From a virus (Duplodnaviria; Heunggongvirae; Uroviricota; Caudoviricetes): DNA of 8,520 nucleotides. This document shows positions 4,354-5,770 of this stretch, piece by piece; the stretch's first letter is position 1, and every line of letters starts with the position of its first letter. The position numbers and the translations under genes were made by a program. The notes under the pieces were generated by a model that was not told where the DNA came from, did no database searches, and worked only from the letters and a program-made list of their open reading frames with translations. Location: positions 1-8,520 of the IMG/VR virus record IMGVR_UViG_2534681654_000003; one strand, 5' to 3'.

Positions 4354-4695
4354 ATGGCGTTCAATGACCTTGAATATCAAGCAGTAAAAAAAGAAGTTCA
4401 CCAATTCATTGAAAGCATAAGGCCGCCTGAACATATCCGCAATGAACTGGATATTGTTTATAGCATCAATGACCAAACGATAGATATCGGCGAACAGCGC
4501 CCCGTGTGGCAGGGCAATCCAGGTGAAACAAACATCCTGCCATCAGCAAGAATCAAGTACATACGTTCTCTGGATAGATGGAAAATCTATTGGATGCGGA
4601 AGGATATGAAATGGCATCAGTACAGTACTGAACTTTCGCTGACTGATGCGCTTGAGCTTGTGCGTGCTGACCCGGATTGCTGCTTCTTCGGATGA
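4354..4695 (+). CDS. Hypothetical protein, 113 aa, in the immunity-operon accessory position (lambda rexA position)
   Basis: Strong SD (AAGGAGG) 5-6 nt upstream of the ATG. No separate promoter seen, so probably co-transcribed with cI. No recognisable motif. Confidence 0.7.
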   Translation: MAFNDLEYQAVKKEVHQFIESIRPPEHIRNELDIVYSINDQTIDIGEQRPVWQGNPGETNILPSARIKYIRSLDRWKIYWMRKDMKWHQYSTELSLTDALELVRADPDCCFFG

Positions 4696-4827
4696 GTGAA
4701 GAGACATTTGGGTGATGGATGGTCGCAGAAGTGCGGCTTTTAATGTAATCGAAGAAAAGTAATCCTTGTAAAACTTGATTTGACTGTATTGTCACAAAGA
4801 AAGGAATCAACGATCGTTTCTTGGGTC

Positions 4828-4856
4828 TTGATTTGTTTTGACGATCAAATTAGTAT
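4828..4856 (+). promoter_or_regulatory. Candidate sigma70 promoter for the 177-aa gene
   Basis: -35 TTGATT (4828-4833), 17-bp spacer, -10 TAGTAT (4851-4856). The predicted start (about 4863) falls inside the 5' arm of the hairpin at 4858-4884. The spacer contains the palindrome TTTGA-cga-TCAAA (4837-4849). CTTGATTTG also occurs at 4774-4782. Confidence 0.4.
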
Positions 4857-4857
4857 T

Positions 4858-4884
4858 GCCTCATCAACTGTATGAGGCTTTTTT
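4858..4884 (+). terminator. Intrinsic terminator-like hairpin abutting the start codon of the 177-aa gene
   Basis: Stem gcctcat (4858-4864) / atgaggc (4872-4878), 7-nt loop, then TTTTTT (4879-4884) and immediately the ATG at 4885. The 3' arm contains the only SD-like element (GAGG, 4874-4877). Confidence 0.6.
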
Positions 4885-5418
4885 ATGCAAACCAAAAGCT
4901 ACACCATCAAAGCATTTCAGGACTTCTTACAGATGCTTCCTGAGCTTGGTATCGTCAATGATGCTACAGCCCGCAATCTCCGTGACTCTTCCCTGCGCCT
5001 TCTTACTGTTCTTGGGTCGGATTTCACCGATGCCGATATCCGTGATTATAGCGTTGCCAACTTAGCAAGTTCGTACGCAGACTCAGCAGAAAGCAAACCC
5101 TCTGAATCATCTTTGCAGGCATACAAAAGCCGGATGCAAAGTGCTATTGATAAATTTATCTCCTACCAGAATGGTGAGATTAATGTGTCAGTTGGTGATG
5201 TAAATAAAAAAAAGGAGCGTAAAAAGATGGCACCTAAGAAGAAGGCGGTAGCTGACGTACAGGTTGGTGTAAAAACATTTGAACTGCCGATTCCATTGCG
5301 CGGAGATCTTATCGTCACCATTGGCAACCTGCCTCGCGACCTGACAAAAGATGAAGCCAAGCGTATCAGTCTGATTGTGGAATCTTTTGCGATGATTGAT
5401 GGCGGAACAAAAGAATAA
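4885..5418 (+). CDS. Hypothetical protein, 177 aa, with a lysine-rich central linker; accessory (moron-like) gene
   Basis: Intact ORF bracketed by hairpin terminators on both sides. Contains an A8 tract (5206-5213) and an in-frame internal AAGGAG-N9-ATG (ATG 5227, residue M115). No recognisable motif. Confidence 0.65.
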   Translation: MQTKSYTIKAFQDFLQMLPELGIVNDATARNLRDSSLRLLTVLGSDFTDADIRDYSVANLASSYADSAESKPSESSLQAYKSRMQSAIDKFISYQNGEINVSVGDVNKKKERKKMAPKKKAVADVQVGVKTFELPIPLRGDLIVTIGNLPRDLTKDEAKRISLIVESFAMIDGGTKE

Positions 5419-5442
5419 AGCCCCGAGGGAACGGGGCTTTTT
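5419..5442 (+). terminator. Rho-independent terminator after the 177-aa gene
   Basis: Stem agccccg (5419-5425) / cggggct (5432-5438), 6-nt loop, then TTTTT. Starts 1 nt after the stop codon. Confidence 0.7.
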
Positions 5443-5591
5443 GGGTCGGAAATATATCCAGTATTTCCGAAGTGTATGGAGGATTACCTACCGCTACACC
5501 CTTGGCAACCGCAAGCCAAGGATAGCGGTTCTCCCAACAAACTACAACCTGTTCGGGTAAACAGGCTGTATACAAAAACAGGAGAAAAGCT

Positions 5592-5726
5592 ATGGCTCAC
5601 GATGTTAATCGCGATGACTTCATCTACGAACACGACAAGCCGGTTTATGTGCGCAGTTACTGCCGCATACGTTTCGGTGAGCTCGAACATGTTCGTCAGC
5701 ACTTCCGCTCTTATCCGAGCTGCTGA
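5592..5726 (+). CDS. Small hypothetical protein, 44 aa
   Basis: Hand-translated: MAHDVNRDDFIYEHDKPVYVRSYCRIRFGELEHVRQHFRSYPSC. SD AGGAGA 7 nt upstream of the ATG at 5592. Preferred over the overlapping 86-aa track ORF (5476..5736), which has no SD. Confidence 0.35.
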   Translation: MAHDVNRDDFIYEHDKPVYVRSYCRIRFGELEHVRQHFRSYPSC

Positions 5727-5744
5727 AAATAACTAAATCTCAAA

Positions 5745-5770
5745 CCCGGCCTCAGCGCCGGGTTTTCTTT
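5745..5770 (+). terminator. Rho-independent terminator closing the immunity/accessory operon (t-imm analogue)
   Basis: Stem cccggc (5745-5750) / gccggg (5757-5762), then TTTTCTTT (5763-5770). Confidence 0.65.

Follow-up and report, generated by a model that had tools for sequence, protein, structure and literature searches.

Two accessory modules between cI and N of a Shiga-toxin-type prophage: a DUF3024 gene and a putative mobile cassette with a structured leader RNA

Between the repressor gene cI and the N gene of a virus of the Caudoviricetes (IMG/VR record IMGVR_UViG_2534681654_000003, positions 1 to 8,520) lie three small open reading frames (ORFs), which are considered here together with the RNA structures found among them. 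The window, i.e., the whole 8,520-nt stretch analysed, corresponds to the early region of a lambdoid phage whose immunity is of the 933W type, a Shiga-toxin-type (Stx) prophage, and its plus strand runs in the leftward (pRM/pL) direction. An earlier note on this DNA, made from the letters alone, had placed the three ORFs between cI and the PL region, in the slot where lambda carries rexAB, and had taken them for a single three-gene island. The coordinates and the slot are right: the ORFs lie on the cI strand upstream of pL, where 933W has L0084-L0083-stk-L0081, and the slot is a documented home of lysogen-expressed exclusion genes such as rexAB, 933W stk and 434 hex (PMC3564112). Each of the three ORFs is a genuine gene, and the region as a whole is lysogen-side accessory cargo of the phage immunity region. 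The single island has to be given up, as there are two unrelated modules whose joint lies at about 4737/4738. The features of the region are the following:

4354-4695, plus strand: ORF1 (113 amino acids, aa), homologue of DUF3024, PDC-S43 and 933W L0084
4721-4738, plus strand: weak terminator-like hairpin closing the ORF1 module (-9.8 kcal/mol, z -2.85)
4774-4782 and 4827-4835, plus strand: direct repeat CTTGATTTG, operator-like
4810-4819, plus strand: GATC-centred palindrome AACGATCGTT, operator-like
4828-4856, plus strand: predicted cassette promoter, from comparative evidence (-35 TTGATT at 4828-4833, 17-nt spacer, -10 TAGTAT at 4851-4856)
4858-4884, plus strand: hairpin (4858-4878) and U6 just before the ORF2 ATG (-10.1 kcal/mol, z -3.55)
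4885-5418, plus strand: ORF2 (177 aa), PHROG 2602
5416-5594, plus strand: structured leader RNA between ORF2 and ORF3, from folding and covariation
5417-5440, plus strand: terminator hairpin after ORF2, which is helix H1 of the leader (-15.3 kcal/mol, z -2.7)
5592-5726, plus strand: ORF3 (44 aa), phrog_21154
5742-5770, plus strand: island-closing terminator (-15.5 kcal/mol, z -3.77)

In megablast, 933W and some 140 further Stx phage records match the region at 4294-4737 only, a segment that starts with the cI stop and comprises ORF1 together with the weak terminator-like hairpin behind it. ORF1 is present in 144 phage records, versus three with a window-type ORF2-ORF3 and 50 with any ORF2 relative, and it occurs in 227 E. 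coli genomes almost always without the ORF2-ORF3 cassette. Conversely, Salmonella, Yersinia, Klebsiella/Raoultella-type and Enterobacter elements, including satellite-like ones, carry ORF2-ORF3 but no ORF1. Among 5426 complete E. coli genomes the window-type cassette (about 1 kb between the joints) occurs in six, whereas the sister cassette of the VT2-Sakai type is far commoner (233). Phage SH2026Stx1 and a second Stx phage record contain the entire 1.5-kb island at 99% identity. From these distributions the region consists of two independent lysogen-side accessory modules, ORF1 on the one hand and a cassette at about 4738-5770 on the other, the latter being self-contained and mobile and made up of a promoter, ORF2, the structured leader and ORF3. 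The terminators listed above (4721-4738, 4858-4878, 5417-5440 and 5742-5770) are four predicted-stable hairpins with U-tracts. The last of them is kept 3' of ORF3 in two other loci (L003 and L015), and positions 5743-5800 match, with 93% identity, the DNA at the annotated rexB end of lambda-type K-12 prophages, as well as hundreds of other E. coli genomes.

The earlier note could assign none of the three ORFs to a family. This stands in part for ORF2 and ORF3, which fall into PHROG families of unknown function, and is wrong for ORF1, a new member of a known family that is itself functionally uncharacterised. Residues 4-113 of ORF1 match positions 2-112 of the 112 in PF11225 (DUF3024; 108.9 bits against a cut-off of 24.9, E 2e-31), residues 1-113 match the PADLOC model PDC-S43 (115 profile positions, E 5e-42), and the protein is 99% identical to L0084 of 933W. 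Neither the DUF3024 nor the PDC-S43 label comes with a demonstrated function: a literature search found nothing naming DUF3024 or L0084, and PDC-S43 appears in the literature only as a predicted candidate in a survey list of O157:H7. A PDB sequence search with ORF1 gave nothing significant. Among the three ORFs, only ORF1 matches a defence-candidate model. Its product is a 13-kDa soluble protein with a small alpha/beta sandwich fold and without any enzyme or catalytic signature, and therefore it probably acts by binding another protein.

ORF1 starts 60 nt 3' of cI, with a strong Shine-Dalgarno (SD) sequence, AAGGAGG, 5 nt upstream of its ATG. Since no terminator was found between the two genes, the co-transcription with cI anticipated in the earlier note is plausible and indeed most likely, the presumed promoter being pRM; it has a precedent in 933W, for which a cI-stk transcript is reported (PMC3564112, which cites Tyler et al. 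2004 for it). In Sakai-type Stx2 phages (e.g., KP682389, 11871-12172) DUF3024 lies in two pieces between cI and the ORF2 relative (83% identity over residues 12-112), and this apparent frameshifted pseudogene is found in many Sakai-type Stx phages. Because these are still functional prophages the gene is dispensable, and because the remnant sits there the order cI-DUF3024-cassette is old. ORF1 is, in short, a dispensable lysogen-side accessory gene. Elsewhere, in Rahnella, a homologue is found at the end of a prophage, where two dinI genes precede it and a type I-F CRISPR locus adjoins.

The second module opens with ORF2, for which neither Pfam, nor NCBIfam, nor PADLOC holds a matching curated family. 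A word-indexed search gave 53 relatives in Enterobacterales, and contig scans located relatives at three loci in genome contigs and 52 in viral contigs. A profile search against 1.84 billion representatives returned 1112 clusters at E<=1e-3 (443 at E<=1e-10), which share one architecture, nearly all of them being 155-200 aa long and matched end to end; no extra domains were recognised in the longer relatives. Three parts can be told apart: a variable N-domain (residues 1-97), a Lys-rich linker with an isoelectric point (pI) of 10 (98-127), and a near-invariant motif, KTFELPIPLRGDLIVTIGNLPRDLTKDEAKRIS.IVESFA (128-170). This C-terminal stretch is by far the most conserved part in the family alignment; in it, P135, R139, P150, D152, L153, E157 and A158 hardly vary, even in relatives that are 25% identical. 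In the AlphaFold2 model, residues 1-97 form a four-helix bundle (predicted local distance difference test of about 90), and in the predicted structure the fold is of the integrase-type SAM-like/core-binding kind that forms the N-terminal domain of tyrosine recombinases. The disordered linker and the C-terminal motif are modelled with low confidence. Against viral structures, Foldseek gave no match at E<=1e-3, the highest-probability matches being integrases, and a PDB sequence search with ORF2 gave nothing significant. The catalytic domain of the recombinases (PF00589, with its R-H-R-Y active site) is missing, there being no Phage_integrase match, and therefore ORF2 is not a recombinase. On the strength of the model, it can best be seen as a core-binding-type domain on its own, joined to a basic linker and a novel conserved motif, a combination which suggests that it may bind nucleic acid.

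ORF3 encodes a soluble, His/Arg/Tyr-rich protein (pI 6.9) behind an SD sequence, GGAG, 7 nt upstream of the ATG. It has no match in Pfam, NCBIfam or PADLOC, the sole match being PHROG 21154 (E 2e-31). In loci whose ORF2 has an identity of only about 45%, ORF3 keeps 93-95% identity in its protein, and its nucleotide differences are overwhelmingly synonymous, with a ratio of nonsynonymous to synonymous polymorphism (pN/pS) of 0.02-0.14; it is, hence, a real gene under strong purifying selection at the protein level. None of the three ORFs contains a transmembrane segment (maximum 19-residue Kyte-Doolittle means of 0.63 for ORF1, 0.81 for ORF2 and -0.36 for ORF3).

The two genes of the cassette are separated by 173 nt, with a hairpin and a U-tract in between. 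In a survey of about 60 loci with an ORF2 relative, counted where there was enough downstream DNA, an ORF of 42-61 aa starts 146-201 nt (mostly 150-175) 3' of the ORF2 stop in every examined locus, and even ORF2 relatives with about 25-30% identity show the pairing. Three classes can be distinguished among the small ORFs. Class A, the type of the window, is that of ORF3. Class B (43-61 aa, PHROG 33859, with the core G[YF]RW..CR[YF]R...LDAH.YGY..W.F.VR) is found in VT2-Sakai, 1717, 2851, YYZ-2008 and Yersinia prophages, and also in relatives whose identity is down to 25-30%. The proteins of class C (44-46 aa), with four cysteines, look like zinc ribbons and belong to satellite-like elements. 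Homology among the classes could not be established, as hhalign gave E 0.11-0.39 and aligned only a 'CR.R' pentapeptide; PDB sequence searches with the class-B ORFs gave nothing significant. Furthermore, the class is independent of the ORF2 phylogeny: a Yersinia relative at 52% identity carries class B, whereas one at 45% carries class A. Yersinia phage YP3 (L078, 3526-3661) has a naturally truncated cassette, with an ORF2 relative 73% identical, a leader reduced to its 5' portion (a score of 53.7 bits with the covariance model R1 described below), no ORF3, and a gin invertase gene on the other strand. In VT2-Sakai (L077, NC_000902), the 57-aa class-B ORF 3' of orf22 (VT2-Sap23), at about 3170-3345 on the plus strand in locus coordinates, is unannotated, and in the same DNA the GeneMark ORF VT2-Sap22 is called on the opposite strand; this annotation is probably wrong, because the plus-strand ORF is conserved across many phages and distant relatives.

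What the earlier note had treated as a plain gap between ORF2 and ORF3 is a conserved structured RNA of about 175 nt. Positions 5416-5606 fold with a minimum free energy (MFE) of -76.7 kcal/mol, compared with -49.3 +/- 4.5 in dinucleotide shuffles (z -6.06, 0 of 200 shuffles). The elements of the leader are:

5417-5425/5432-5440, plus strand: helix H1, terminator-like
5448-5454/5462-5468, plus strand: helix H2
5490-5496/5523-5529, plus strand: helix H3
5500-5506/5515-5521, plus strand: helix H4
5530-5534/5581-5585, plus strand: helix H5, pairing of an anti-SD with the SD
5544-5553/5560-5569, plus strand: helix H6
5522-5534, plus strand: putative switch strand AUAGCGGUUCUCC, paired with the ORF3 initiation region in the MFE fold

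The leaders of classes A and C are homologous in their DNA (61% mean column identity), with ORFs behind them that are not detectably related. R1, a covariance model with the six helices built on them, retrieved and aligned 21 distinct leaders; in this alignment, which is partly fitted to the model, 84% of the cells are in standard pairs, against 33-49% when the partners are slid by 1-3 columns, 12 pairs show compensatory double changes, and the covariation score lies above all 500 shuffles. Helices H3 and H5 covary (alifold and the covariance-model alignment), and the SD/anti-SD helix H5 is 90% paired, with two covarying pairs (UCUCC/GGAGA versus UAACC/GGUAA). The signal of the class-B leaders is even stronger: in a plain MAFFT alignment that includes three distant members, 94.5% of the cells are paired, versus 27-45% in the slid controls, 11 of the 17 pairs have compensatory changes, and a six-pair long-range helix is wholly changed between lineages. 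A core, CCGC...[hairpin]...UAGCGG, is common to the three leader classes. R1 does not detect the class-B leaders at E<=1, so that a possible common ancestry of the A/C and B leaders is argued for only by this core and the position. At E<=1, the only Rfam match in the window is the cIII thermoregulator, and none is credible in the leaders of L077, L008, L015 and L012. The leader is, then, a new structured RNA absent from Rfam. The known prophage small RNAs (sRNAs) of enterohaemorrhagic E. coli (the anti-sRNAs AsxR/AgvB, the Pas sRNAs and HnrS) were considered as candidates and discarded, as they occupy late-gene or other positions and not the cI-N junction.

In the MFE fold, the strand AUAGCGGUUCUCC pairs with GGAGAAAAGCUAU (5581-5593), which comprises the ORF3 SD and the first two bases of its start codon. 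It has alternative upstream partners, GGAGGA (5478-5483) and ACCGCUA (5490-5496), that resemble the initiation region, and in L015 the two alternative partners of the switch strand are near-identical 14-mers. As this strand can pair with either the initiation region or its upstream mimic, we infer that the leader may act as a three-element translational switch. H1 (nine pairs and U5) has the look of a strong terminator, and its class-B counterpart has no U-tract.

Upstream of ORF2, the earlier note had proposed a promoter of its own and flanking terminators, and both are borne out by a conserved sigma-70-type promoter and by the hairpins at 4858-4878 and 5417-5440. A simple scan missed this promoter, which is supported by its conservation in divergent cassettes: the pattern TTGAYY-N16-18-TAnnnT is present in 26 of 40 distinct upstream sequences, 16-60 nt (mostly 16-41) from the ATG. 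The repeats and the palindrome around it look operator-like. GATC sites lie at 4812-4815 and, within the promoter spacer, at 4843-4846; in general, GATC is found in the spacer (class A) or overlapping the -35 box (class B), with palindromes or direct repeats just upstream, and class-B promoters (L050, L064 and others) contain GATC palindromes such as TTCATCGATCGATGAA. The window is not enriched in GATC (29 sites versus 36.6 expected), so the sites are notable only for their conserved placement in the promoter, which hints at a Dam/SeqA-sensitive or operator-controlled transcription. The hairpin at 4858-4878, between the -10 box and the ATG, holds the ORF2 SD, GAGG (4873-4876), in its 3' arm, and an equivalent hairpin with GAGG in the 3' arm exists in L003, L012 and L022. 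Since the hairpin precedes the ATG and its 3' arm contains the SD, read-through from cI/ORF1 would be terminated there with the ORF2 SD masked; transcripts from the cassette promoter would start within the 5' arm of the hairpin, near 4863, and would leave the SD free.

The earlier note had asked whether homologues recur at the cI-N junction of other prophages, and they do, in four immunity types: this window, Yersinia pseudotuberculosis prophages, another enterobacterial group and VT2-Sakai-type Stx phages. Outside this junction, the Salmonella copies lie directly after a prophage dinI gene, next to pepN and at the prophage edge; the copy of Yersinia phage YP3 adjoins gin and tail-fibre genes; in Enterobacter, a satellite-like element with integrase and capsid genes carries a copy flanked by its AAA_25 replication gene and its capsid module; and another copy belongs to an element with a D5-type primase and SSB. 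Such a distribution fits an autonomous moron and not a core phage function. The Enterobacter element (L008-L011, 530-12492) is of the type integrase-AlpA-DUF4222-AAA_25 and has genes for capsid, protease, portal, head-tail connectors and small terminase as well; it looks like a phage satellite that forms capsids, with the class-C cassette between its replication and capsid modules. In a Y. pseudotuberculosis prophage (L012, 4899-5663) a BstA-type gene (KilA-N and BstA_C) lies between cI and the ORF2 relative, and because of this adjacency the cI-N slot can be said to stack several accessory modules.

What could such a cassette be for? Tentatively, and with confidence that falls somewhat short of even, it may serve to express a small effector conditionally in lysogens, through an RNA gate, for the exclusion or abortive infection of other phages or elements. 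In this model the leader would hold ORF3 translationally off, and ORF3 would be switched on when the leader refolds onto the upstream segment that mimics the initiation region (GGAGGA...ACCGCUA). ORF2, as the nucleic-acid-binding component, would set or sense the switch and might autoregulate at the GATC-containing repeats near its own promoter, and the effector would be ORF3 or, in other elements, its class B or C counterparts. Exclusion is favoured because of the history of the slot (rexAB, stk), because the mobility and the insulation of the cassette are typical of defence cargo, and because ORF3 and the C-terminus of ORF2 are extremely conserved, as would suit conserved targets; the likeness to rexAB and stk is one of logic, not of ancestry. 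Several points weigh against it. ORF3 has no hydrophobic segment and resembles no known toxin, and, as the small-ORF classes are not demonstrably homologous, the term effector is a positional attribution. H1 looks like a strong terminator, which puts in doubt how much transcription reaches ORF3, and a scan detected no promoter within the leader. The R1 alignment is partly fitted to its own model and the switch draws also on predicted folds, and the C-terminal domain of ORF2 is poorly modelled, the binding of ORF2 to nucleic acid being a prediction. No PADLOC model matched ORF2 or ORF3, and the literature search found no published work testing any of the three ORFs.

A wider form of this proposal, which we consider rather unlikely, is that ORF2, leader and micro-ORF make up an undescribed and widespread class of RNA-gated two-component systems in prophages and satellites, in Enterobacterales and beyond. 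The invariant C-terminal motif of ORF2 would recognise the CCGC...UAGCGG core in the leader downstream of its own gene, an invader or a DNA site would be sensed by the variable, integrase-like N-domain, and the release of the leader would unmask the translation of an interchangeable small effector (class A, B or C), by which infection is aborted or the cell arrested.

The serious rival to exclusion, in itself not a likely one, is that the cassette is a regulatory or cross-talk device and no defence at all: the small ORF would be an antirepressor- or inducer-like peptide with ORF2 as its regulator, and the RNA gate would keep the peptide silent until a signal such as SOS, a helper phage or a superinfection, so as to control the induction of its own or other prophages and satellites. 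The Salmonella copies directly after dinI occupy the place of the LexA-controlled dinI-antirepressor operons of the Gifsy prophages, whose small trans-acting antirepressors have about 70 aa (PMC3121763), and other copies adjoin the repressor in lambdoid phages or, in satellite-like elements, lie between replication and packaging modules; a conserved protein target would also be in keeping with the near-invariance of ORF3. However, the cI of the window has an S24 autocleavage domain and needs no antirepressor, no LexA box with an intact CTG...CAG is visible upstream of ORF2, tblastn of ORF2 has no Gifsy phage among its matches, and the dinI match retrieved in Gifsy-2 is followed by gtgE-like DNA and not by the antirepressor operon. 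The idea that ORF2 itself is a Gifsy-type antirepressor or an irsA homologue was dropped, given the size of GfoA/GftA (about 70 aa; PMC3121763) and that same tblastn result. A further alternative, which appears improbable, would make the leader mainly a stand-alone regulatory or stabilising RNA (an sRNA derived from the 3' untranslated region of ORF2, or an insulator of stacked terminators), with ORF3 as a minor passenger. The RNA of classes A and C is indeed better conserved than the ORFs behind it, which are not detectably related, the UAGCGG core recurs in all leader classes and H1 is terminator-like, but the strong purifying selection on the ORF3 protein, the small ORF at a fixed distance in every examined locus, and a covarying H5 that involves specifically the ORF3 SD all speak against it.

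For ORF1, anti-phage defence (in the manner of Rex or Stk) and stabilisation of lysogeny (in that of 434 Hex) are about equally plausible. A more precise proposal, that it is a lysogeny-stabilising repressor partner or a RecA/SOS modulator in the manner of 434 Hex or plasmid PsiB, with no anti-phage role, is less likely than not. It draws on the position of the gene close behind cI with no terminator in between, on the two dinI genes preceding the Rahnella homologue, and on the example of 434 Hex, likewise co-transcribed with cI, which blocks the RecA-mediated cleavage of the repressor (PMC3564112). Opposed to it are the PADLOC classification of the family as defence candidate PDC-S43 and the frameshifts in functional Sakai-type Stx2 prophages, which make the gene dispensable.

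The closest known arrangement is rexA-rexB of lambda, which occupies the same slot and strand, after cI and before pL/N, has a homologous terminator (in the tIMM position) and is likewise lysogen-expressed accessory cargo. Lambda pLIT is an internal promoter in the rexA-rexB operon, and the own promoter of the second unit resembles it. The RexA and RexB families are absent from the Pfam, PADLOC and NCBIfam matches of the three ORFs and, unlike RexB, none of these is a membrane protein; the structured leader and the 44-aa ORF take the place of a RexB-type component. Phage 933W shares the cI type and the first gene, but its L0083, stk and L0081, the second of which encodes a kinase reported to abort HK97 infection (PMC3564112, on the authority of Friedman et al. 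2011), are replaced from 4738 on by ORF2-leader-ORF3; Pfam finds no Stk-type kinase domain in ORF1-3. In VT2-Sakai (Sp5) and the related 1717, 2851 and YYZ-2008, orf22 (VT2-Sap23) is an ORF2 relative (38.6% identical) in the same cI-N slot, with the conserved, unannotated 57-aa ORF about 150 nt downstream, a leader supported by covariation and the frameshifted DUF3024 before it. The differences are that its class-B ORF is basic (pI 10.4) and not detectably homologous to ORF3, and that the topology of its leader includes a long-range GAGCAC/GUGCUC helix.

With tyrosine recombinases and recombinase-derived regulators (the core-binding domain of lambda Int, Xer, IntI, SPbeta MrpR) ORF2 shares neither the catalytic domain nor, in its 177 aa, the linker and C-terminal motif. 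Type I toxin-antitoxin (TA) systems of the hok/sok, tisB or zorO type also have a long structured leader that pairs with the SD of a tiny ORF, with possible alternative pairings; in contrast to them, ORF3 is hydrophilic and no membrane peptide, and a conserved protein gene upstream always belongs to the unit. A sequence scan identified no antisense RNA gene, the minus strand showing no signals other than H1 read in reverse and a terminator-like site at 5570-5543. Type II TA families are absent from the Pfam, NCBIfam and PADLOC matches, and the genes neither overlap nor abut; the BstA domains (KilA-N and BstA_C) are absent from ORF1-3. The cassette accordingly belongs to none of RexAB, Stk, BstA, the TA families and the Rfam families; it borrows a core-binding fold from integrases and, in its predicted sequestration of the SD, a logic like that of hok. 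No published description of a unit of protein, covarying leader and interchangeable micro-ORF was found.

The immunity region of Stx phages decides on lysogeny, induction and toxin release and is a known home for exclusion genes, and it is there that this conserved, unannotated cassette of protein, RNA and micro-ORF is found, also in the reference O157 phage VT2-Sakai. Its protein family extends to more than 1000 clusters. The RNA-switch model proposed for it is testable down to the exact bases. If the cassette excludes phages or controls induction, the ecology of Stx phages and the host range in phage therapy would be affected, and a new way of gating small effectors would have come to light.

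The rest of the window follows the lambdoid gene order, with kil and gam after cIII:

348-1799, minus strand: DnaB-type helicase gene
1774-2673, minus strand: O-like replication gene
2845-3141, minus strand: cII
3280-3507, minus strand: cro
3586-4293, plus strand: cI repressor (Peptidase_S24, E 4e-16, and HTH_3), positioned as 933W cI
5955-5983, plus strand: pL-like promoter, downstream of the island and before N
6233-6616, plus strand: N, after the pL-like promoter
6675-7145, plus strand: 156-aa ORF directly 3' of N, equivalent of 933W L0079 (PHROG 1636, unknown function)
7235-7600, plus strand: gp17-type superinfection-exclusion gene (Pfam GP17, E 1e-55; PHROG 1510, moron/superinfection-exclusion)
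7660-7718, plus strand: cIII thermoregulator RNA, overlapping the cIII start (full-length Rfam match, 88.5 bits, E 4e-21)

The thermoregulator is an expected, known element, and the L0079-like ORF is another conserved, uncharacterised early gene. Between this ORF and cIII, in the pL operon, the GP17-type gene represents a second candidate exclusion function in the window, of a known kind.

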